Shown here one piece after another: positions 4,990 to 31,713 of a stretch of 32,873 nt of DNA. The notes under the pieces are model-generated. The model made no database searches. It was not told the origin of the DNA and worked only from the letters and a program-made list of their open reading frames with translations. Made by a program: the position numbers and the translations under genes. Source of the DNA: an uncultured Desulfobulbia bacterium (GTDB lineage: Bacteria; Desulfobacterota; Desulfobulbia; Desulfobulbales; SURF-16); contig CAZUZJ010000002.1 of the NCBI GenBank assembly GCA_964624225.1, positions 1 to 32,873 of the forward strand. Direction: 5' to 3'. Position 1 is the stretch's first letter, and the number at the start of each line of letters is the position of its first letter.

Positions 4990-6180
4990 ATGGCAAAGGA
5001 AAAGTTTGAACGTAAAAAACCCCATGTAAATATTGGCACCATTGGTCATATCGATCACGGGAAAACGACGTTGACCGCAGCAATCACCCAGGTGCTGGCC
5101 ACCAAGGGGTACGCCAAGAAGACCGATTTCAGCGAGATCGACAAGGCCCCGGAGGAGAAGGAACGCGGTATCACCATCGCCACCGCCCATGTTGAGTATG
5201 AGACGGATAATCGGCATTATGCGCATGTGGACTGCCCGGGCCATGCAGACTATATCAAGAATATGATCACCGGCGCTGCCCAGATGGATGGGGCGATTCT
5301 GGTGGTGGGTGCGGATGACGGACCGATGCCGCAGACCAGGGAGCACATTCTGCTGGCTCGTCAGGTTGGTGTGCCGGCGATCGTCGTGTTTCTGAACAAG
5401 TGTGATATGGTAGACGATGTCGAGCTGATTGAGCTGGTTGACATGGAGTTGCGCGAGCTGCTGAGCAAGTATGAATTTCCCGGCGATGACACCCCGATCA
5501 TCCAGGGCAGTGCCCTGAAGGCGCTGGAGAATCCTGCTGATCCGGAGGCGTCCAAATGCATCTGGGATCTGATGGCAGCGGTGGATTCGTTTGTGCCGCA
5601 GCCTGAGCGCGACATCGACAAGCCGTTTCTGATGCCGGTGGAGGACGTTTTTTCCATTTCCGGTCGTGGCACGGTGGCCACCGGGCGTATCGAGCGTGGT
5701 ATCGTGAAGGTAGGCGATGAGGTGGAGATAGTCGGTATTCGGACCACCCAGAAGACGACAGTGACCGGCGTAGAGATGTTCAGGAAGATCCTGGACCAGG
5801 GTCAGGCCGGTGATAACGTTGGTATCCTGCTGCGCGGCACCAAGCGTGAGGATATTGAGCGCGGGCAGGTGCTGGCGGCGCCGAAGAGCATCACCCCGCA
5901 TGTGAAATTCAAGGCGGAGTGCTACATTCTGACCAAGGAAGAGGGTGGCCGCCACACGCCGTTTTTTAATGGCTACCGACCCCAGTTTTATTTTCGGACC
6001 ACGGACGTGACGGGCATCGTCACCCTGCCAGAGGGGGTGGAGATGGTCATGCCTGGTGACAACGTGACGATAGACGGCGCCTTGATTACGCCGATCGCCA
6101 TGGAGGCGGGTCTCCGCTTTGCCATTCGCGAGGGTGGCCGCACGGTGGGCGCCGGTGTCATTAACGAGATAATCGAATAA
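4990..6180 (+). CDS. tuf: Elongation factor Tu
   Basis: 396 aa. Motifs [36 protein letters not shown] and NKCD. Confidence 0.99.
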
Positions 6181-6189
6181 GGATAGACA

Positions 6190-6501
6190 ATGATCCAGAC
6201 ACAGAAAATTCGTATCAGGCTGAAAGGCTATGATCATAAACTGCTCGACCAGTCGACCCATGAGATCGTCGATACGGCAAAGAGAACCGGTGCCATCGTT
6301 GCCGGCCCCATTCCCCTGCCGACCTCTGTCAATAAATATTGTGTTCTCCGTTCGCCTCATGTCGATAAAAAATCCCGTGAAGCCTTTGAGATGAGAACCC
6401 ACCGGCGATTGCTTGATATCCTTGAGCCTACCCAGCAAACCATTGACGCCTTGATGAAGTTGGAACTGTCGGCCGGGGTTGATGTGGAGATTAAGCTGTA
6501 A
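6190..6501 (+). CDS. rpsJ: 30S ribosomal protein S10 (uS10)
   Basis: 103 aa. [18 protein letters not shown] and [21 protein letters not shown] blocks match S10. It starts only 9 nt after tuf. Confidence 0.98.
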
Positions 6502-20215: not shown

Positions 20216-21280
20216 ATGGCAAATGAGGAAACTTTGACACAAGAGTTATCACCATTTTATCGAAACTGGCATGATCTCATCACTCCCAATCCACTGGAGG
20301 TTGATCATGAAACCCATACAGCAAGTTATGGAAAATTTGTCTGTCATCCATTGGAGCGTGGATTTGCCACCACCATCGGCAACGGTCTTCGCCGTATTCT
20401 GTTGTCCTCGGTGCAGGGAGCTGCCATAACATCTGTCAAAATTGATGGTGCCCTCCATGAGTTTTCTACTCTTCCGGGAATCCTTGAGGATGTCACGGAA
20501 ATCATTCTGAACCTCAAAGAGGTTCGGTTGAAGCTTTTTGTCAATGATTCTGCCATTGTTCGTATTGAAAAACGCGAAAAAGGCAATGTCACGGCAGCTG
20601 ATATCATCGGTGGCGCTGCAGTTGAGGTGATGAATCCGGAAAAGCATATCTGCACCCTAACCGGTGACGCCCCTTTTGTCGCAGAGCTTGAGGTCAAATG
20701 GGGCAAGGGGTACTCGCCTGCAGAAAAAAACAAGAACGAAGAGCAGACTGTCGGTGTTATTCCCATTGATGCAATTTTCACTCCGATCAAGAATGTGAAG
20801 GTTGTTGTCAGTCAGGCCCGTGTCGGGCAGCGCACCGATTACGACAAGCTGACCTTGGAGATTCTCACCGATGGCAGTGTCAAACCTGAAAACGCCCTTG
20901 CCTATGCGGCCAAAATTCTCAAGGAGCAGATGAACGTCTTCATCAATTTTGATGAAGACCAGGTTGAGCGCGCCGAGGACGAAAAGGTCGTTATCCGTGA
21001 AGATCGGGAAATGAACCCGCATCTGTCCAAGAGTGTCGAAGATCTTGAGCTGTCTGTCCGGTCTGCAAACTGCCTCCGTAACGCCCAGATTTGTTACATC
21101 GGTGAACTTGTCCAGAAAACAGAGGCGGAAATGCTCAAGACGAAGAATTTTGGTCGCAAGTCGTTGAATGAAATCAAACAGCTTCTGTCCCAGATGGATT
21201 TGTCGCTTGGCATGAAGATAGATAATTGGGAACCGCCGGTGTCATCCCTATCCGATGAATCGGTTGAAGAAAGAGGGTAA
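20216..21280 (+). CDS. rpoA: DNA-directed RNA polymerase subunit alpha
   Basis: 354 aa. [24 protein letters not shown] and the C-terminal domain block [23 protein letters not shown]...[12 protein letters not shown]. Confidence 0.97.
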
Positions 21281-21282
21281 AA

Positions 21283-21666
21283 ATGAATCACAGAAAGACA
21301 GGAAGACGACTTGGTCGATCCTCAGCCCATCGTCGCGCCATGGTGCGCAATATGGTAACATCACTGCTGGATCATGAACGGATTGTGACAACGACTCCCA
21401 AGGCAAAGGAGGTCCGTAAGGTTGCAGACAAAATGATTACCCTGGCCAAACGTGGTGATCTGCATGCCCGCCGGCAGGCATTGGCCTTTGTTCAGGATCC
21501 TCGAGTGGTTGCCAAGCTGTTTGACAAGCTCGGCAATGAATATCGTGATCGCAACGGTGGGTACACCCGGATCATTCAAACCGGGAACCGCTATGGCGAT
21601 GCAGCGCCGATGGCTATCCTTGAGCTGGTCAATTATCAGCAGAACACTGCTGCCCAGAACGAATAA
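21283..21666 (+). CDS. rplQ: 50S ribosomal protein L17 (bL17)
   Basis: 127 aa. [37 protein letters not shown]. Confidence 0.98.
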
Positions 21667-21787: not shown

Positions 21788-22312
21788 TCAATAGACGGTC
21801 AGGGTGTAGAGCCGATGATGATGGTATTCCGGCCATTCTGCTTTTTTTTCTTGTGATCCCTCCACATAGATGGCTTGGGCGGCAATAAGCTCTTGCGGAT
21901 AGCTGCCGCCCAGCAGTGCCTGTTTTTCCTCACTGCTCTGCGGGACTCGGACAATCAGGCAATCTCCTTTGTCGTTGAAGAGACTCTGCACCGCCGATGT
22001 CATCAGGTCAATCGTTTGCCATCGGGTAGCGGTGGTGAGCCCTCCTTTGCTTTCTTCCTCACTGATAAAGAGATACCATTTCTCTTTGATTTTACGGATA
22101 GAGAATTTTTTCATGAATTCCAGTGCTTTGTCCTGGTTTATGATCAGAGGGGTACATGCGGACGCCGTCCCTGGCATGGTTCTTTCGGGAATAATGTCAT
22201 CATGACAGCTGGCAATGCCGGAGCCGCTTGGAAAAGCGGCAACGGATGCTGGCAGCGCAGCAGAATACAGGGTCAGGATGACGGCGGCCAAAAGAGGGGA
22301 AAAACGTGTCAT
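21788..22312 (-). CDS. Hypothetical secreted protein (174 aa), no recognisable family
   Basis: Signal-peptide-like N-terminus MTRFSPLLAAVILTLYSAALPASVAA. TAAGGA lies 7 nt upstream of the ATG. No CXXCH motif. I recognise no motif. Confidence 0.6.
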   Translation of the reverse strand: MTRFSPLLAAVILTLYSAALPASVAAFPSGSGIASCHDDIIPERTMPGTASACTPLIINQDKALEFMKKFSIRKIKEKWYLFISEEESKGGLTTATRWQTIDLMTSAVQSLFNDKGDCLIVRVPQSSEEKQALLGGSYPQELIAAQAIYVEGSQEKKAEWPEYHHHRLYTLTVY

Positions 22313-22442: not shown

Positions 22443-22477
22443 TAAAAAAAGGAGCAGGCGGATAATCCGCCTGCTCC
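22443..22477 (-). terminator. Strong rho-independent terminator downstream of the large cytochrome gene
   Basis: Perfect 12-bp stem GGAGCAGGCGGA / TCCGCCTGCTCC (22451-22462 / 22466-22477) with a 3-nt loop. On the minus strand it is followed by a T8 run (the plus-strand A-run at 22443-22450). Confidence 0.88.
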
Positions 22478-22508: not shown

Positions 22509-25500
22509 TTACGGAAGAACGACCTGCAGATCGCCGTCATCAGCGACGGTGTATGTGGTCTGACTGTAGTCGGCGGCCATAACTTTGACTGAGATGTCGT
22601 AGGTCTTGCCGCCGAGGGTGTAGGTGTGGGGCACACCTGCCGCCAGCTGCGCCGGGGTTACCTGGCTGGATTTCCGATCGCCCCAGTAGATATAGGCGCG
22701 GATGATGCCAGCGTCGAGAGCCGAGCCGGTCAGGGTTACTGTCTTTCCTGCCACCGCACTTGTAAAACCGGCATCGAGTACTTCCGGTTCGACGATTTGG
22801 GCCGTTGCAGTGACCTCCGCCTCGTAACATTCATCGGTGACTGAGTCACAGGCGATGACGCTTGCGGTGTAGTCAGCTGCCGCCGGGTAGGTAACCGTGG
22901 CGATGGCACCGTTGACGACCACTGCAGCACCTGCATCACCGGCATCAAAGGTAAATTCGCAGCCGTTGGGACAGGTCGTTCTGCTGGCATTCAACTCAAC
23001 CTCGAGATTGGTCGTCATGCTTGACAGGGCGCTCAGGAATGGCGTGAACGACGGTCTGATCCAGGGGTTCTCGGTTGAGAAGCCCCAGCTGGCATGGCAG
23101 GAGTTCGAGGCACAGCTACCCGCTGCCCCCATCGGGCCCGGGGTATAGGTGAAGGTAGAGACAACGCCGTTTTTGTCGAGCGGTTGACCCGCGTCGGAGA
23201 CGGTCGTGAAGTCGATGTTGCCGGCGCCGGTGGCGCTGTAATGGCAATTGCTGCACTTGCCGTAACCGGCTGCGACATGGCGGTTATGGACGGAGTTGAC
23301 CCTGGTGTTGAGGTAATCAACAAACTCGGCGCGGGTGCTGACAACGCCGGCCTGGGTGGTCTGGATCGGGACCCGCAGGGTGTTCTCCCACAGGGCCTCG
23401 GAGATATCCATATCACGCAGGGTGGTGCCAGCAGACACATTGAGGGCAATGGACCGGGCGTTCCCCTGGGAGGCTTTGGCAAACAGGGTCGGATGGAAAT
23501 CCGATGCTACCCCCCCGGCTTCGGTGGTGTTGACCTTGGTGAATGGGGTGCGGTCTGCACTTGCGTAGGAGATAGTCAGATCACGCGGCTTGACGGCATA
23601 GGAGCCGTTGTAAAAGCCTTTGTCCGCACCGTGACAATCGGTGCATCCACCTTTACCCCAGGCCTCTGCCGCAGGCGAGACGTTGTGGTTGACCTTGAAC
23701 ATGACACCCATGAAGGAGAGCTGCAGATTGGCCCCGGTTACATCAATGCCCACGGTGGGCAGGTAACTCAACAGGGCGGCACGCTGGTCGGCAACCTCGG
23801 TCGCATCAATCACACCGTCCTGGGTCATGGCGGAAATGCCAGCCGCGGCCATGGCGTCACGGACATGGGTCGGATTGACCTGATCCATGCCACCCATCTG
23901 GCCGTCGGCGTTGATGTCCACGGCAGTATCATTCTTATCGCGCCAGAACATGGAAATAAGAGAGTTGGTCTTGATCAGCTTGCCACCCTGCCAGGCCAGG
24001 GCCAGGTTGTTTTCCATGGAGCGTTCGACATAGAGATTCTCGTGGTCGGTGACCCGGCCTTCGGCATCAGGTCCGGAGAGATCAACCATGGCGCCGCCGG
24101 TGCCCCATTCGTAGAGTGAGCCGTGGGTGTCGCCACCCTCGGCCGCGGTCGGTCCATGGCCGAGTTTGCGAACATGGCAGGTGGAGCACTCCAGGATGTC
24201 GAGATGGCTGGCATTGCGGGTGCCGTCAACGCCGGTTTGCAGGATCAGGGAGGTCAAACCCAGTGCAGCATGTTTCGGGGTCGGGTCAATTGCACCGTAA
24301 TTTTCACCGTTGGGGGTGGCAGAGTGACAATCCTGGCAGTTCTTCATGGAGTTGTCATTCTTGTTCCACAGCGAGCTGTAGGGGGCATTGCCCTTGGCCG
24401 GATCATGACCGGTAAAGGTCGAGCTTGATTTGCCGTCGAGGAATTTCAGGTCGTCATACTGGCGCCAGGCGCCGCCACCGTAAACCGAGTCATCTTTTTT
24501 CGCATGACAGCTGACGCATTCGAGGGCGCCATGGACATCGGCCTCATAGGGGACGCCCCAGGAGTCGCCGCGCTTTTTCCAGTCAACGGCATGCATGTCG
24601 GCATGGCAGTTGGCGCAGTTTTCACTGGGGATGCCGTGCAGGTGAGAACCGGCCACACCGAGGGTCAGGTTGCCGCTGGAGATGCCGACCATGGCCGGGT
24701 CATAGGCAACGGTGGTGCCGCTGATGGGGGTGCCGATCTCAGCGCCGACCACGCGGGAGGCATCGAATTTGCCCTTGCGGATCGCCTCATTGCGTTCTTT
24801 ATAGGCATAGCCTTCCATGTGGCACATGAGACAGTCCATCTCAAGGACACCGGTTTGTGAATAATCCTGAGCAATGGCTTCGCCGAGAATGCCGTCGTTG
24901 TCCTCGTCATACTGATCGATGAAGAAGTTGAAGGAGTTGATGGTGTTGGGGAGGCTGGCTGTGCGCAACTCCTGGCGCGGATCGTTCGGCGTGCAGGTGA
25001 AATAATGGGTCTCGGTGTTGTACTGATAGGTGCCGCAGTATCCTTCGACATCCGTGGATGTACAGGGCTGACCGGCCATTCCGCTGTTGTTGGTGTAGGT
25101 CACACCACGGTAGACCTGTTCGCTTTGGCAGGTTCCGTTTGACAGCGACGTGCCCGGGGCAACGGGCAGATATTGCATGGCGCCGCCGCCGACATGGCAT
25201 TCGGCGCAGTCGCGCATCTGACCGGCGGCGGTCATGTCGGCTTTTTTCACGAAGGCGTCGAGATCGGCCGGCACGGCAGGATCGCCAAAACTGAAGAGGG
25301 TGTTGAAGTCGACCGCGGCCTTGAGGCGCGGTTTGATCGGGTTGGTCGCCTTGACATAGGTGGAAACACCACCTGCATCAAGCCTGCTGCCGTATTCATC
25401 CACCAGGGTGTCAACGCCGGCGGTATAGATGCTGTCGCCGTCATTATCTTCAAAATAGCCCATGGTGGTTGCGCTGTCCGCATTAAAGTTGACCTGGGCG

Positions 25501-25523
25501 CTGTTGGCAAAGAACCTCGACAA
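22509..25523 (-). CDS. Large multiheme c-type cytochrome, C-terminal 1004-codon segment (8 CXXCH + 1 CX4CH, two C-terminal PKD/Ig-like domains); probably not an independent gene
   Basis: Heme motifs CAECH, CLMCH, CANCH, CVSCH, CQDCH, CSTCH, CTDCH, CSNCH plus CASNSCH. C-terminal IYWGDRK...VPHTYTLGGKTYDISVKVMAAD is PKD-like. The ORF-track start is a TTG with no SD and no signal peptide. It is in the same frame as ORF 25542..25925. Confidence 0.85.
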   Translation of the reverse strand: MSRFFANSAQVNFNADSATTMGYFEDNDGDSIYTAGVDTLVDEYGSRLDAGGVSTYVKATNPIKPRLKAAVDFNTLFSFGDPAVPADLDAFVKKADMTAAGQMRDCAECHVGGGAMQYLPVAPGTSLSNGTCQSEQVYRGVTYTNNSGMAGQPCTSTDVEGYCGTYQYNTETHYFTCTPNDPRQELRTASLPNTINSFNFFIDQYDEDNDGILGEAIAQDYSQTGVLEMDCLMCHMEGYAYKERNEAIRKGKFDASRVVGAEIGTPISGTTVAYDPAMVGISSGNLTLGVAGSHLHGIPSENCANCHADMHAVDWKKRGDSWGVPYEADVHGALECVSCHAKKDDSVYGGGAWRQYDDLKFLDGKSSSTFTGHDPAKGNAPYSSLWNKNDNSMKNCQDCHSATPNGENYGAIDPTPKHAALGLTSLILQTGVDGTRNASHLDILECSTCHVRKLGHGPTAAEGGDTHGSLYEWGTGGAMVDLSGPDAEGRVTDHENLYVERSMENNLALAWQGGKLIKTNSLISMFWRDKNDTAVDINADGQMGGMDQVNPTHVRDAMAAAGISAMTQDGVIDATEVADQRAALLSYLPTVGIDVTGANLQLSFMGVMFKVNHNVSPAAEAWGKGGCTDCHGADKGFYNGSYAVKPRDLTISYASADRTPFTKVNTTEAGGVASDFHPTLFAKASQGNARSIALNVSAGTTLRDMDISEALWENTLRVPIQTTQAGVVSTRAEFVDYLNTRVNSVHNRHVAAGYGKCSNCHYSATGAGNIDFTTVSDAGQPLDKNGVVSTFTYTPGPMGAAGSCASNSCHASWGFSTENPWIRPSFTPFLSALSSMTTNLEVELNASRTTCPNGCEFTFDAGDAGAAVVVNGAIATVTYPAAADYTASVIACDSVTDECYEAEVTATAQIVEPEVLDAGFTSAVAGKTVTLTGSALDAGIIRAYIYWGDRKSSQVTPAQLAAGVPHTYTLGGKTYDISVKVMAADYSQTTYTVADDGDLQVVLP

Positions 25524-25553
25524 CTGTCGAGCAGAGGGGGGTCACCACTTGCC
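25506..25553 (-). other. In-frame TGA (25542-25544) plus downstream hairpin: candidate selenocysteine (SECIS-like) or readthrough site, or a nonsense lesion
   Basis: The mRNA reads GGCAAG-UGG-UGA-CCCCCCUCUG-CUCGAC-AGUU-GUCGAG-GUUC-UUUGCC. A perfect 6-bp hairpin (25516-25531) starts 10 nt after the UGA. The outer GGCAAG/UUUGCC pairing encloses both. Confidence 0.35.
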
Positions 25554-25925
25554 GACGTGGCCGGGGGACTGAACCCACGGTTTACCCTTGGTGGCGATGG
25601 AGTTCCAGTTGCCCATGGTCCAGGCGTTCCAGCCTGAGATCTCGTTGGCACCGAGTTGGGCATGGTAGGAATGGCGCTCAATTGCCTGGTAATCATGACA
25701 ACCGACCGCACCACAGGTCTTCTGGGCACTGAAGGCCGGGGCGGCGGCAGGAGGCGCATCCGCGACACCATCGCCATTGGTGTCGATCGCCGCAATAGCG
25801 TTACCTGAAGCATCGCGCAGGGTGACATTGTTGTGAGAAAAGGACTGCGCCTGGGAGGCGGCAAGCAGCAGGGCTGCAGCAGTCAGCGATGTGACCAGCA
25901 CTCCTCGTTGATACCTTTTTTTCAT
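25542..25925 (-). CDS. N-terminal segment of the large multiheme cytochrome (signal peptide + CX4CH motif), ending at the in-frame TGA
   Basis: 127 codons. AAGGAG lies 7 nt upstream of the ATG. Signal peptide MKKRYQRGVLVTSLTAAALLLAASQA, DTNGDGVAD Ca-loop-like motif, and CGAVGCH. Confidence 0.8.
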   Translation of the reverse strand: MKKRYQRGVLVTSLTAAALLLAASQAQSFSHNNVTLRDASGNAIAAIDTNGDGVADAPPAAAPAFSAQKTCGAVGCHDYQAIERHSYHAQLGANEISGWNAWTMGNWNSIATKGKPWVQSPGHVGKW

Positions 25926-26082
25926 TTTTCACTCCTTTCGTTACGTCGAGTTAACATCTTCACTGTTTTTTGCCGGCTCGCCTCAGCGGTTTGGGGGAAC
26001 CGTCTCTCTCTATCAGGGAATCCGGCAAAGTCACTACCTGTAACACGCGCACACAGTTGGGGAACTGTGCCCAAGTCATTTA

Positions 26083-28118: not shown

Positions 28119-29135
28119 ATGAACATTTTTTTCAATCATGGCAGGGTGGTGCGCATCTCGATGGTGCTGTTTTTTCTGTTTTTTGCATCCTTTTCCTGGG
28201 CCGCGGAGGAGGCCAAAAAGGATGAGGTCGTTGCCAGGGTGAACGACCAACCGGTTATGCGCAAGGATTTTGATGCGGCGGTCAATTCCGCCAAGCAGGA
28301 GTTTGCCGGGATCGGCTGGCAGGAAGGGGACGCGGCCCAGTTGGAGAAACTGCACAACATGGCCCTGGACCGTCTCATCGATCTGGAGTTGCTCTATCAG
28401 GCCAGCAAGAAAGAAGGGATCACGGTCGATAGTGCGGAGGTGGACGAACAACTGGCGGGCTTCAAGAAACAATTTCCCTCGGATGAGGAATTCGCCAAGT
28501 TCATGCAGACCAATGAGCTGACCGAGAAAATCATGAAAGAGCAGCTGTCCCGGCGCATGGCCCTGGAGGGCTTGCAGAAGAAGCTGCGCGAGGATTTCAC
28601 CGCCAAGGCCCAGGTTGGTGATGAGGAGATCCGCAAGTTTTATGATGACAACATGGATAAGATGAAGGAGCCGGAAAAGGTGCGTGCCAGTCACATTCTC
28701 GTCACCGTTGCCGAAAATGCCGATGAGAAGACGAAGGCGGCGGCCATGGCCAAGATCAAGGATATCCAGAAGAAAATCAAGGATGGCGGCGATTTTGCAC
28801 AGCTGGCCAAGGAAAACTCGGACTGTCCGAGCAAGGAACAGGGCGGCGATCTGAACTACTTTGTCCGCGAGCAGATGGTCAAACCCTTCGCTGACGCTGC
28901 TTTTGCCACGCCGGTCGGTCAGGTGAGCGATATCGTCACCACCAATTTCGGGTATCATCTTATTAAGGTGGTGGACAAGAAGGCGGAAACGACTCTGACG
29001 TTTGACCAGGTCAAGGAGAAAATCAAGACCTTTCTGTCACAGCAGGAGCTTGATGTCATGTTTCAGAACTACATCAAGGGACTGCGCGATAAGGCGAAGA
29101 TAGAGCGATTGCTGGCGGCCACCAAAGAAAAATAA
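28119..29135 (+). CDS. Secreted parvulin-type peptidyl-prolyl cis-trans isomerase (SurA/PrsA-like)
   Basis: 338 aa. Signal peptide ...VLFFLFFASFSWA. Parvulin core VRASHILV...CPSKEQGGDLNYFVREQMVKPFADAAF...VGQVSDIVTTNFGYHLIKV. Confidence 0.88.
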   Translation: MNIFFNHGRVVRISMVLFFLFFASFSWAAEEAKKDEVVARVNDQPVMRKDFDAAVNSAKQEFAGIGWQEGDAAQLEKLHNMALDRLIDLELLYQASKKEGITVDSAEVDEQLAGFKKQFPSDEEFAKFMQTNELTEKIMKEQLSRRMALEGLQKKLREDFTAKAQVGDEEIRKFYDDNMDKMKEPEKVRASHILVTVAENADEKTKAAAMAKIKDIQKKIKDGGDFAQLAKENSDCPSKEQGGDLNYFVREQMVKPFADAAFATPVGQVSDIVTTNFGYHLIKVVDKKAETTLTFDQVKEKIKTFLSQQELDVMFQNYIKGLRDKAKIERLLAATKEK

Positions 29136-29308: not shown

Positions 29309-29986
29309 ATGGCGAAAATCAGGGTACTGCTGGTTGACGACCATGACGTGGTGCGAAGCGGCCTGAAATCCCTGCTGGGCATGGACAATGAACTTGCCAT
29401 CATCGGTGAGGCGGCCAACGGCGTCGAGGCCCTGGCCAAGGTGGCGGAGCTTGGCCCCGATGTCGTGGTCATGGATATCTCCATGCCGGTGATGGATGGC
29501 ATGGAGGCGGCGCGGCGGATGCGGGTCCGTCACCCTGACTGCCGTATTCTGACCCTCACCGTGCATGAGGACAAACAGTATTTCTTTGAGATGCTGGCCG
29601 CCGGCGCCAAAGGGTATATCACCAAGCAGGCGGCGGCGGAGGATCTGGTCGCCGCCATCAAGGCGGTGGCCTCCGGCAATGTTTATCTGCAGCCGGCCCT
29701 GGCCCGCTGGCTGCTCGAAGATTATCAGCGGCTCAATAAAAGCGGCAGCGCCAACGGCGAGGAGTCCATGCCGTCGGCTGATCTCGATTCGCTCAGCAGG
29801 CGGGAGTTGCAGATTCTCGAACTGGTGGCGGAGGGGCTGACCACCCCGGAGATCGCAAAAAAAATTGATCTCAGCCCGAAGACCGTTTCCCGCCATCGGG
29901 AACGAATCATGAATAAGCTTAATCTCCATTCCACCACCGAGCTGGTCAAGTTCGCCATCCGTACCGGTCTGATCGGGGTGCATTAA
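29309..29986 (+). CDS. Two-component response regulator, NarL/FixJ (LuxR-type HTH) family
   Basis: 225 aa. REC domain (RVLLVDDHDVV, VVVMDISMP, AKGYITK) plus a LuxR HTH (LSRRELQILELVAEGLTTPEIAKKIDLSPKTVSRHRERIMNKL). Confidence 0.93.
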   Translation: MAKIRVLLVDDHDVVRSGLKSLLGMDNELAIIGEAANGVEALAKVAELGPDVVVMDISMPVMDGMEAARRMRVRHPDCRILTLTVHEDKQYFFEMLAAGAKGYITKQAAAEDLVAAIKAVASGNVYLQPALARWLLEDYQRLNKSGSANGEESMPSADLDSLSRRELQILELVAEGLTTPEIAKKIDLSPKTVSRHRERIMNKLNLHSTTELVKFAIRTGLIGVH

Positions 29987-30146
29987 GGATGAATGCGTCG
30001 TAAAAAGCCGTTTTCCCCACTGAGAACACAGCGGGCAGGGGAGATGTTTTCAATGACGCTCTGGTATCTCTGATGTCTCTGTGGTTGATTGTCAGTTCAT
30101 CTCCATGAAGGGATTACGGTTGCTGGCCGGAGATGGGCAGGGTTGT

Positions 30147-30180
30147 CGTCAACTGGCAACCGTCAACTGGCACCGTAACT
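30147..30180. repeat. Tandem direct repeat, about 2.5 copies of a 14-nt unit CGTCAACTGGCA(A/C)C
   Basis: CGTCAACTGGCA at 30147-30158 and again at 30161-30172, then the partial copy CGTAACT at 30174-30180. It lies 19 nt upstream of the preferred kinase start. Confidence 0.6.
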
Positions 30181-30198
30181 TTTCCCGGGAGTTGCCTG

Positions 30199-31713
30199 AT
30201 GCAGGATGATAAGGTGAATCGCTGCGGTATCTTTCCCTCCAGCTTTTTCCGCAGTCTGGTCTTTTTCTCCCTGGTGGCTGTTCTGGTGCTGCCCCTTTAT
30301 ACCTTTTTTTTCCTCTCTCCCTCGTTTGTCGATTTCATCATCAAATCCCATAAGGAACTGGCCATTGATGTTGCCGTGCACATGGAATCGAAACTTATTC
30401 CCGACGAGACTAAAAGCCTGACCCGCGACATCCTGACTCCTCTGGTTTTGCACCGGATCTCCACCACGGCGGAGGATTTCAATCTGCTCAAGGTGCGCAT
30501 CATGTTTCCGGACGGCGAGATATTTTTTTCCAGCACCCCCGGCGAGGTCGGCCGGGTGATCTCGTTTGCCGAGTTCAAGCGGACGGTGGCCACCGGCCGC
30601 CCCGCGGTGCAGATGATCCGCCGGGGTGAGAAGTCGTCGGAAGGACAGGTCATGCCAGGCGACATTGTCGAGACCTATGTCCCTATTCTTCGTGATGGCA
30701 AAACCATCGGTGTCTTTGAAATCTATTACGATGTCACCCGCCAGAAGGAAGAACTGAACAGTCTGGTCCGCTCCCTCTACTGGACCCTCTTCCCCATTGC
30801 CGCCATTCTTTTCTGCGCCGTGGTGTTGAGCTGCCGGCGCGCCAACAGTAACATTGCCCGCCGGATCGTCGCGGAAGCCGAACTGATGCGGCAGGGTGAG
30901 GAGCTGAAGGAAAAAAACGCCGAGCTCACCGAGGTTATTGCGGTCTGTCGAGAACGCCAGCAACGGCTGGAGGAGGCGCAGCAGGCCCATCAGCAGGCCC
31001 AGGAGCAGATCGAGCGGGAAATGTCCAAGCGGGAAAAGATGCGGATCGATCTGCTCCGGCACATGGTGCGGGCCCAGGAGGAGGAAAGGGCGCGGATCGC
31101 CAGGGAGTTGCATGACGAGACAGCCCAGACCCTGACCGCCGCGTCTCTCAATTTCGCCACCCTGAAGAATCTGCTCGCCGCCAGTCCGGAGATGGCCGAG
31201 ATTGTCGGCAACCTCCAGTTCCTCTGCAAGCAGATGCATAATGATCTGTATCGGCTGGTCCATGATCTGCGTCCGGCCCAGCTCGACGACCTCGGTCTGG
31301 TGCCCGCCCTCCGTTATCTGGCCGACGAGGGGCAGAAGGCAACCGGTCTCCGGGTTATTCTGGAAATCGGGGGAGAACCGAAAAAGCTGGAGCCCTTTGT
31401 TGAGACCATCATCTACCGCTTCGTACAGGAAGGGCTGACGAACGTTACGCGCCATGCCGGCACGGAACAGGCCGTTGTTTCCATCATCTATGAGGACAAC
31501 CGGGTGATCGCCCGGGTGGAGGATCATGGCCGCGGTTTTGATCCGAGCCGGCAGCAGCAGAATGGCGGGGGGTGGGGGCTGATCGGCATCTCCGAGCGGG
31601 CCCAGTCCCTGAAAGGTGATTTCCGGATCGAGTCAGCCCCGGGCAAGGGCACGATGATCGAAATCTCCGTGCCCCTGGAAATCGCCTCCTGCCCACTTGA
31701 CGCCTTGCACTGA
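30199..31713 (+). CDS. Sensor histidine kinase, HisKA_3 (NarX/LiaS-like) class, two TM segments flanking an extracytoplasmic sensor domain
   Basis: H-box EERARIARELHDETAQTL, N-box QEGLTNVTRHA, G-boxes DHGRGF and GGWGLIGISERA. TM segments at FFRSLVFFSLVAVLVLPLYTFFFL and LYWTLFPIAAILFCAVVL. I prefer ATG 30199 (GGGAG 7 nt upstream). The longest ORF starts at 30133. Confidence 0.9.
   Translation: MQDDKVNRCGIFPSSFFRSLVFFSLVAVLVLPLYTFFFLSPSFVDFIIKSHKELAIDVAVHMESKLIPDETKSLTRDILTPLVLHRISTTAEDFNLLKVRIMFPDGEIFFSSTPGEVGRVISFAEFKRTVATGRPAVQMIRRGEKSSEGQVMPGDIVETYVPILRDGKTIGVFEIYYDVTRQKEELNSLVRSLYWTLFPIAAILFCAVVLSCRRANSNIARRIVAEAELMRQGEELKEKNAELTEVIAVCRERQQRLEEAQQAHQQAQEQIEREMSKREKMRIDLLRHMVRAQEEERARIARELHDETAQTLTAASLNFATLKNLLAASPEMAEIVGNLQFLCKQMHNDLYRLVHDLRPAQLDDLGLVPALRYLADEGQKATGLRVILEIGGEPKKLEPFVETIIYRFVQEGLTNVTRHAGTEQAVVSIIYEDNRVIARVEDHGRGFDPSRQQQNGGGWGLIGISERAQSLKGDFRIESAPGKGTMIEISVPLEIASCPLDALH

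Follow-up and report, generated by a model that had tools for sequence, protein, structure and literature searches.

We looked at a stretch of 32,873 nucleotides from an uncultured Desulfobulbia bacterium (contig CAZUZJ010000002.1; the window, by which we mean the whole stretch of DNA that was analyzed), in which a gene for a secreted multiheme cytochrome is split in two by a single in-frame UGA. Our analysis indicates that this UGA, codon 128 of the gene, is very probably read as selenocysteine (Sec) by SelB, and that the protein is exported via its single signal peptide before the hemes are attached in the periplasm. The same hidden Sec site seems to be present in more than 50 related genomes, with the annotation splitting the gene in two. 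An earlier reading of the window, made by a model from the letters alone (the sequence-only reading), had proposed one gene with a UGA recoded through a hairpin that resembles a selenocysteine insertion sequence (SECIS), and this proposal is supported by comparisons of the stop column, of the forms that carry Cys, of the ratio of nonsynonymous to synonymous substitution rates (dN/dS) and of the hairpin. Selenocysteine recoding itself is textbook knowledge; the novelty lies in the family, a widespread and consistently mis-annotated multiheme selenocytochrome.

The gene layout was re-read and agrees with what had been described. The upstream open reading frame (ORF; 25925..25542, minus strand) encodes 127 amino acids with one CX4CH motif (C71-H77), and the downstream ORF (25523..22509, minus strand) encodes 1004 amino acids with eight CXXCH motifs and one CX4CH. 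Both are in one frame, and between them lie a single TGA (25544-25542) and six sense codons, PPSARQ; the fused 22509..25925 reading frame is otherwise free of internal stops and of frameshifts. A signal peptide (residues 1-26) and a good ribosome binding site, AGGAG, are confined to the upstream piece, and by inspection of the sequence the downstream 1004 amino acid ORF has neither a hydrophobic N-terminus nor a Shine-Dalgarno sequence before its TTG. Heme c attachment motifs need periplasmic maturation. Seven other ORFs in the window, ribosomal-protein genes among them, terminate in TGA; the genetic code is therefore standard, TGA is an ordinary stop here as the sequence-only reading had stated, and codon reassignment is excluded.

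The stop is not peculiar to this genome. By searching with the fused protein we found 69 homologues of 33-96% identity, and 67 of the 69 C-terminal homologues are called as starting a few residues past the stop (MARLF..., LARIF...), without a signal peptide. Identity reaches 96% in the MAGs (metagenome-assembled genomes) JBMONN01 and JBMONO01. The search with the N-terminal piece gave 108 homologues of 107-157 amino acids, all of which stop at one and the same Trp; a comparable hydrophobic leader is present in each homologous N-terminal ORF. DNA was fetched for 70 loci, on contigs from one genome per species. It had been suggested that the column of the stop be compared among orthologues, and this comparison favors recoding: at the GH-x-G-x-W-(stop)-PPS-x-RQ column TGA is found in all 52 stop-bearing loci and never TAA or TAG, over 30-96% protein identity, and one locus (L030, from a Desulfocapsa MAG) has TGT (Cys). 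Isolates are included in the 52 loci (seven Geomonas species, Malonomonas rubra DSM 5091 with two copies, and Geotalea toluenoxydans), and Geobacter sulfurreducens PCA has TGA at the same column in both paralogues. In two full-length proteins from the database the site is a sense codon, for Cys in one (P0049, at locus L074, with the codon TGC) and for Asp in the other (P0037), and Cys also occupies the column in the cluster representatives P0201, P0207, P0212, P0231 and P0246. The Cys and Asp forms are single uninterrupted ORFs.

The protein sequence around the stop behaves as a continuous coding sequence. The motif GHxGxW-U-PPSxRQ is kept across the stop and is invariant or nearly so; P129, P130, S131, R133 and Q134 are each conserved in at least 90%, codon variation is concentrated at third positions, and the base after the UGA is invariably C across the loci. 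Compared with its two nearest relatives, the window gene has a dN/dS of 0.12-0.17 in the N-terminal part and of 0.09 in the remainder, and purifying selection acts on both sides of the UGA. Among the homologues compared, no orthologue was a pair of separate genes that both carry an export signal.

Several loci deserve separate mention. Two nearby paralogues are found in L002, L032, L071, L074 and L075, and in L074 and L075 a non-Sec copy (Cys or Asp) is paired with a Sec copy in one locus, which would allow the two kinds to be compared in a natural setting. The copy in L046 (the draft genome of Geotalea toluenoxydans JCM 15764, ~5570-6320) has only 249 codons after read-through; it may be a pseudogene, or a frameshift or a fault of assembly may account for its length. 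L022, a MAG labelled Thiobacillaceae (Betaproteobacteria), has a Sec-type member with an intact hairpin, owing either to horizontal transfer or to mis-binning.

The perfect 6-bp hairpin with a G in its loop, which had been reported 10 nt past the UGA, is present, and the distance from the UGA to the loop is 16 nt. The TTG at 25523-25521, the called start of the downstream ORF, sits in the hairpin loop and 3' arm. Published rules for bacterial SECIS (bSECIS) elements ask for a stem of at least 4 bp, a loop of 3-9 nt in which one of the first two positions is a G and the next base is G or U, a UGA-to-loop distance of 16-37 nt and a minimum free energy of -7.5 kcal/mol or lower (PMC13188914). With its AGUU loop, 6-bp stem and 16-nt spacing the hairpin fits this consensus with a borderline energy, and the UGA with the following 36 nt folds at -8.8 kcal/mol. 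The fold check that had been proposed for the 81-nt region 25480-25560 gave no signal above chance from the window alone, the stability of the region being no greater than that of dinucleotide shuffles (z = 0.18). On this ground recoding is not proven by the window taken by itself.

Comparison among the homologues gives the SECIS-like geometry further support. RNAalifold returned an essentially empty consensus on the 51-sequence alignment and explicit pair counting was used instead, by which the helix is paired in 90.8% of cells over the 51 aligned junctions. Two pairs show compensatory changes: pair 27-40 (U-A in 37, G-C in 9) links an Ala codon, at its third position, with the use of either AGR or CGN for Arg, and pair 30-37 (C-G in 38, A-U in 5, U-G in 5) links a synonymous position of an Arg codon with an Ala/Ser exchange. 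The covariation score was reached by none of 500 shuffles. The strongest evidence for an RNA element comes from synonymous codon use, with the rest of the same genes as background: the Leu codon in the loop is UUG in 43 of 43 (8% in the background), the next Ala codon is GCG in 93% (13%) and the next Arg codon is AGA in 74% (7.5%). In three forms without the UGA the loop Leu is replaced by Met, Thr or Ser (AUG, ACA and UCA, in frame) and the helix is shortened or lost. The compensatory pairs, the fixation of codons and this decay in non-Sec forms show that the hairpin is under RNA-level selection beyond the coding constraint. The uniform mis-annotation of the family, with its 'MARLF...' N-termini, arises because the conserved UUG of the hairpin is taken as a start codon.

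An outer helix, GGCAAG/UUUGCC, had also been suggested to extend the hairpin. This pairing is present in the window, but only 50% of its cells are paired over the 51 homologues and it is thus not conserved. Transcription attenuation was considered as another role for the hairpin and is unlikely, as a conserved U-run after it is absent.

A number of points weigh against the reading of UGA128 as Sec. The hairpin is short, its spacing is at the minimum of the allowed range, and its own folding energy, -7.4 kcal/mol, narrowly misses the cut-off of -7.5. It overlaps strongly conserved codons, and its conservation is partly driven by the protein. Rfam gave no gathering-threshold match on the whole window and no SECIS match; at E <= 10 the sole match in the local region is a chance one to SAH (E = 9.7). 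Some relatives have Asp, Ser, Tyr or Asn at the UGA column, and because of these the residue is not universally redox-active. The window was found to hold no tRNA at all, 40 related loci gave no tRNA-Sec either, and the coverage of the source genome is the 33-kb window, which bears on the question of selA, selB, selC and selD. AlphaFold2 confidence is below 50 at the site to which the function proposed below refers, and Sec at UGA128 in this family is deduced here from the comparison of sequences.

The alternative that survives best, though we hold it to be improbable, is that the UGA-C context together with the hairpin allows readthrough with a standard residue (Trp, Cys or Arg, by a near-cognate tRNA), so that the long protein is made without selenium. 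UGA-C is a weak terminator in bacteria and the C is invariant here; the shortness of the hairpin and the missing Rfam match can also be counted for this option. Yet the sense residue that recurrently replaces the UGA is Cys and not Trp, the loop and the spacing suit the consensus of SelB-type SECIS elements, and members of the family are found in lineages whose Sec machinery is known (G. sulfurreducens and relatives of Desulfurivibrio). Readthrough of low efficiency would also be a costly route to a highly conserved enzyme of 1,138 amino acids in more than 50 species.

Another option, which we consider very improbable, is that there are two real genes, one for a secreted mono-heme cytochrome of 127 amino acids and one for a protein of 1004 amino acids that is translated from the UUG by termination and reinitiation. 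All the public annotations that were examined call two ORFs, and the UUG, 18 nt past the stop, is kept in all 43 loci. However, the product of the downstream ORF would lack a signal peptide despite its nine heme-attachment motifs, no Shine-Dalgarno sequence precedes the UUG, and conservation at the protein level extends over the six codons that separate the UUG from the stop. In the Cys and Asp forms, which are single ORFs, the UUG is replaced by AUG, ACA or UCA in the same frame, and a start codon at this place leaves the biases of the downstream GCG (Ala) and AGA (Arg) codons unexplained. Finally, a fresh nonsense mutation, a pseudogene or a base-call error in the source genome, alternatives that the sequence-only reading had kept, are favored by nothing more than the in-frame stop itself and the unremarkable fold statistics of the window, and they are excluded for practical purposes by the same TGA in 52 independent loci, finished isolate genomes included, and by dN/dS of 0.09-0.17 on both sides without more stops or frameshifts.

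With UGA128 read as Sec, the architecture of the full protein can be described from an alignment of 38 complete genes. The family core consists of eight invariant heme motifs (C71, C240, C365, C437, C470, C530, C580 and C761), and nine His residues outside the motifs are invariant or nearly so (85, 88, 123, 465, 552, 574, 628, 747 and 811). The sequence-only reading had remarked that no Cys lies next to the UGA; this was found to be so, and throughout the 38-gene alignment there is no invariant Cys outside the heme motifs. His123 is a probable axial ligand of a heme, as judged from the sequence: the alternation of His and Met at this position is expected of an axial ligand, and Sec would on this ground be placed five residues from a heme ligand. 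The C-terminal region resembles beta-sandwich domains. A profile search against the PDB matched the PKD domains of ColH at profile positions 895-1104, Foldseek against the PDB gave only immunoglobulin (Ig), FN3 and PKD matches, all from C-terminal domains, and the Pfam PKD match is weak. The heme core matches no solved structure in PDB sequence, profile and fold searches. AlphaFold2 gave a usable core for the Asp-type homologue P0037, with a predicted local distance difference test (pLDDT) below 50 over residues 1-158, which include the Sec-equivalent site; for the N-terminal ORF of the window (74 sequences) pLDDT was below 50 over residues 106-127. Because pLDDT is below 50 around the site in both models, the distance from Sec to the heme is not derivable from them.

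The closest known system is MccSep/ExtKL (GSU2937-2936), a five-heme polysulfide reductase of G. sulfurreducens in which Sec was verified experimentally (Sci Adv 2026, PMC13510729; PDB 9WT8). Sec decoding is thereby experimentally proven in an organism that carries two copies of the window family (PMC13510729). Both proteins are secreted multiheme c-type cytochromes whose annotation is split by one in-frame UGA with a SECIS-like hairpin directly downstream, each includes an Ig-like domain, is found in Desulfobacterota and has Cys forms that are rare, and the residue after Sec is in either case a Pro, within a Gly/His-containing loop (HAGHSIPDG-U-PTPNR in MccSep, SPGHVGKW-U-PPSARQ in the window). 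The differences are in size and arrangement. The window family has 8-10 hemes and ~1,140 amino acids whereas MccSep has five hemes and ~450 amino acids; Sec lies in the N-terminal module (residue 128) and not, as in MccSep, in the C-terminal Ig domain; and the window family has no invariant non-heme Cys that would match the heme-ligating C239 of MccSep. Neither the window protein nor the family profile matched 9WT8, although this entry was present in the PDB set searched. The window protein thus falls outside the MccSep/ExtKL family (NF040886), with no NCBIfam match and no match to 9WT8; searches of NCBIfam at E <= 0.01 gave 0 families for the fused protein and for ten diverse N-terminal modules.

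Other families show partial likeness. The GSU2204 family (NF041027) and the octaheme tetrathionate reductase (OTR, TIGR04315) are also extracytoplasmic CXXCH proteins of anaerobes of which some members have Sec, and the octaheme cytochrome of the tetrathionate-reductase family shares the count of its eight-heme core with the window family; the family hidden Markov models of TIGR04315 and NF041027 gave no match. There is weak Pfam similarity to domains II/IV of MtrC/MtrF and to cytochrome c7, but the match to the MtrC/OmcA type (PF22113) scores 28.6 bits against a cut-off of 30 and no PDB structure matches. Cytochromes of Geobacter with PKD domains share the C-terminal PKD/Ig domains. We know of no member of the MtrC/OmcA type or of the Geobacter PKD-domain cytochromes that contains Sec. 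At the RNA level the hairpin is like the SECIS of E. coli fdhF in that it lies within the coding region immediately 3' of the UGA and constrains the encoded peptide, with the G-U of the apical loop found ~17-20 nt past the UGA. It is unlike the fdhF element in its shorter, perfect 6-bp helix without a bulged U and its minimum spacing of 16 nt.

The family appears to have escaped earlier catalogues. A 2007 stop-codon survey of Geobacter found only GSU2937+2936, and the table of a 2026 selenoproteome review lists as heme-motif selenoproteins only ExtKL (NF040886), the GSU2204 family (NF041027) and OTR (TIGR04315); the window family is absent from that table, and no paper in the literature searched describes it as a selenoprotein. 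Within this literature we regard it as a putative new selenoprotein family, unrelated to MccSep.

A mechanism that is well supported by these sequence data, and by what is established on bacterial Sec insertion, is as follows. When the ribosome arrives at UGA128, SelB with Sec-tRNA(Sec) would bind the hairpin through its AGUU loop (25531-25516), Sec would be inserted and translation would go on to a precursor of 1,138 residues, whose single N-terminal signal peptide would export the entire chain through the Sec translocon. A periplasmic maturation system would attach ten hemes, eight of them belonging to the family-wide core. Without selenium or SelB, translation would stop at the UGA and only the mono-heme product of 127 residues would be made. 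Sec128 would lie in the loop GH-x-G-x-W-U-P-P-S-x-R-Q, five residues past the probable axial ligand (His, or Met in paralogues), and the invariant Arg133 and Gln134 may help to bind the substrate, with no resolving Cys. We suggest, tentatively, that Sec128 acts as a heme-adjacent nucleophile which reduces an anionic chalcogen-type substrate (polysulfide, sulfur or selenite) with electrons from the heme wire; that it serves as a heme ligand seems less likely. Such chemistry would be analogous to that of MccSep, an unrelated protein, with the difference that no partner Cys is present.

G. sulfurreducens PCA carries two split copies of the gene, GSU3227/3228 and GSU3232/3233, each with the in-frame TGA and a hairpin. 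One copy consists of 137 + 991 amino acids with the junction GHVGSW-UGA-PPSARQ, and the other, more divergent, consists of 121 + 1063 amino acids with the junction MYGKW-UGA-SPSLRQ and a hairpin of its own. Both flank a NarL-type regulator and a kinase, within a cluster of NHL-repeat proteins and cytochromes. Higher expression of GSU3228, GSU3232 and GSU3233 with hematite and magnetite was reported, as was induction of the cluster GSU3218-3233 by iron oxides. The supplements of a proteomics study (PMC7894505) hold GSU3227, 3228, 3232 and 3233 as annotations only, without detection data. FdnG is marked in a table of that study as selenocysteine-containing (PMC7894505), and Sec was therefore recognized there and not in GSU3227/3228 and GSU3232/3233.

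The N-terminal module is spread still wider. Its profile was compared with 1.84 billion cluster representatives and gave 273 clusters, of which 150 were listed. Among these matches listed, 85 of the 150 reach the last one or two positions of the profile; 57 of the 85 end exactly at the Trp and 28 continue past it with Cys (6), Asp, Ser, Tyr, Asn and others, and Met replaces His123 in a large subgroup. Proteins that end in ...SPGM-x-GKW followed by a stop are found among P0197-P0323 (for example P0213, P0233, P0263, P0294 and P0322), and some of them, with 226-498 amino acids, have the module at their C-terminal end and similarity to DmsE/GSU2203-like decaheme cytochromes upstream. Their sequences suggest further Sec-containing cytochrome architectures. 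It is conceivable, though we would not yet call it probable, that the window gene belongs to a large unrecognized superfamily of extracytoplasmic multiheme selenocytochromes, in which an N-terminal mono-heme module ends in (H/M)-x-G-x-W-U and Sec, with no partner Cys, would work directly with the heme, either as its axial ligand in selenolate form or as a nucleophile beside it that acts alone. If so, the heme-selenium chemistry of this superfamily would differ from that of MccSep. The superfamily, GSU3227/3228 and GSU3232/3233 included, may reside on the surface of bacteria that respire metals and sulfur.

The window family is apparently the second family of multiheme selenocytochromes, unrelated to MccSep and much larger. 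Its gene is split in every public annotation examined, the curated genome of G. sulfurreducens included, and the family is missing from selenoprotein catalogues and from NCBIfam. If confirmed, it would lead to the correction of hundreds of gene models and to an enlarged selenoproteome of Desulfobacterota, and it would tie the availability of selenium to iron-oxide-responsive proteins of extracellular or periplasmic electron transfer. GSU3227-3228 would then be a genetically tractable system for a lone Sec beside a heme chain, and a systematic annotation trap would be exposed, in which the UUG of a SECIS loop is mistaken for a start codon. The features discussed here are collected in Table 1.

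Table 1. Positions of the candidate selenocytochrome gene, its elements and its neighbors in the window, with the related copies of G. sulfurreducens.
Feature	Position	Strand	Remarks
Complete candidate selenoprotein gene	22509..25925	-	1,138 codons including UGA128 and the final TAA; secreted cytochrome with ten heme-binding motifs
Shine-Dalgarno AGGAG	25932..25936	-	6 nt 5' of the ATG; read from the sequence
Sec-type signal peptide MKKRYQRGVLVTSLTAAALLLAASQA	25848..25925	-	Residues 1-26, ends in SQA; sole export signal of the protein
Heme motif 1, CGAVGCH (C71, C76, H77)	25695..25715	-	Family-invariant, written CX2-5CH
His123	25557..25559	-	Five residues before Sec; family-invariant, Met in a paralogous subgroup
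UGA128, putative selenocysteine codon	25542..25544	-	Next base C (UGA-C)
PPSARQ codons between UGA and mis-called TTG start	25524..25541	-	Translated, from protein-level conservation; third positions vary
Candidate bacterial SECIS hairpin CUCGAC-AGUU-GUCGAG	25516..25531	-	Perfect 6-bp stem, 4-nt loop with G-U
Heme motifs 2-8 (C240, C365, C437, C470, C530, C580, C761)	23631..25208	-	Each CXXCH; invariant in 38 full-length homologues
Heme motifs 9 (CSNCH) and 10 (CASNSCH)	23094..23255	-	Only in the Desulfobulbales-type subgroup, ~15 of 38
C-terminal Ig-like/PKD beta-sandwich region	22512..23240	-	PDB profile, Foldseek, weak Pfam PKD
Intrinsic terminator	22451..22477	-	12-bp GC-rich stem followed by a T-run, 32 nt past the TAA stop
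Octaheme cytochrome, 383 amino acids	26395..27546	-	8 CXXCH; Pfam Multi-haem_cyto and cytochrome c554-like
SurA/PpiC-type peptidyl-prolyl isomerase	28119..29135	+	Conserved neighbor in 13 loci
NarL/LuxR-type response regulator	29309-29986	+	With the family in 21-22 loci including G. sulfurreducens
HisKA_3 sensor kinase	30133-31713	+	With the family in 21-22 loci including G. sulfurreducens
G. sulfurreducens copies	L071 8001-11408 and 14307-16414		AE017180.2, ~3.540-3.549 Mb
Junction peptide across the UGA, G. sulfurreducens PCA (predicted)			NWVQSPGHVGSW-U-PPSAR

Some of the genes around the selenocytochrome gene are conserved with it. The octaheme cytochrome lies 470 nt upstream on the same strand and adjoins the family in 13 loci. 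The set of neighbors, with its prolyl isomerase and NarL-type pair, resembles the arrangement of the mccA sulfite-reductase cluster with its mccB and mccR/S genes.

On the other side of the gene there is a secreted protein of 174 amino acids (21788-22312), which is conserved only in the closest relatives and is probably a separate transcription unit because a strong terminator directly follows the selenocytochrome gene. The remaining part of the window (32-21666, plus strand) apparently holds ordinary genes of translation factors and ribosomal proteins that are unrelated to the finding; the sizes and order of the ORFs suggest fusA, tuf, the S10-spc-alpha operons, rpoA and rplQ. The ORFs at 20216-21280 and 21283-21666 are conserved in L001 and L009.

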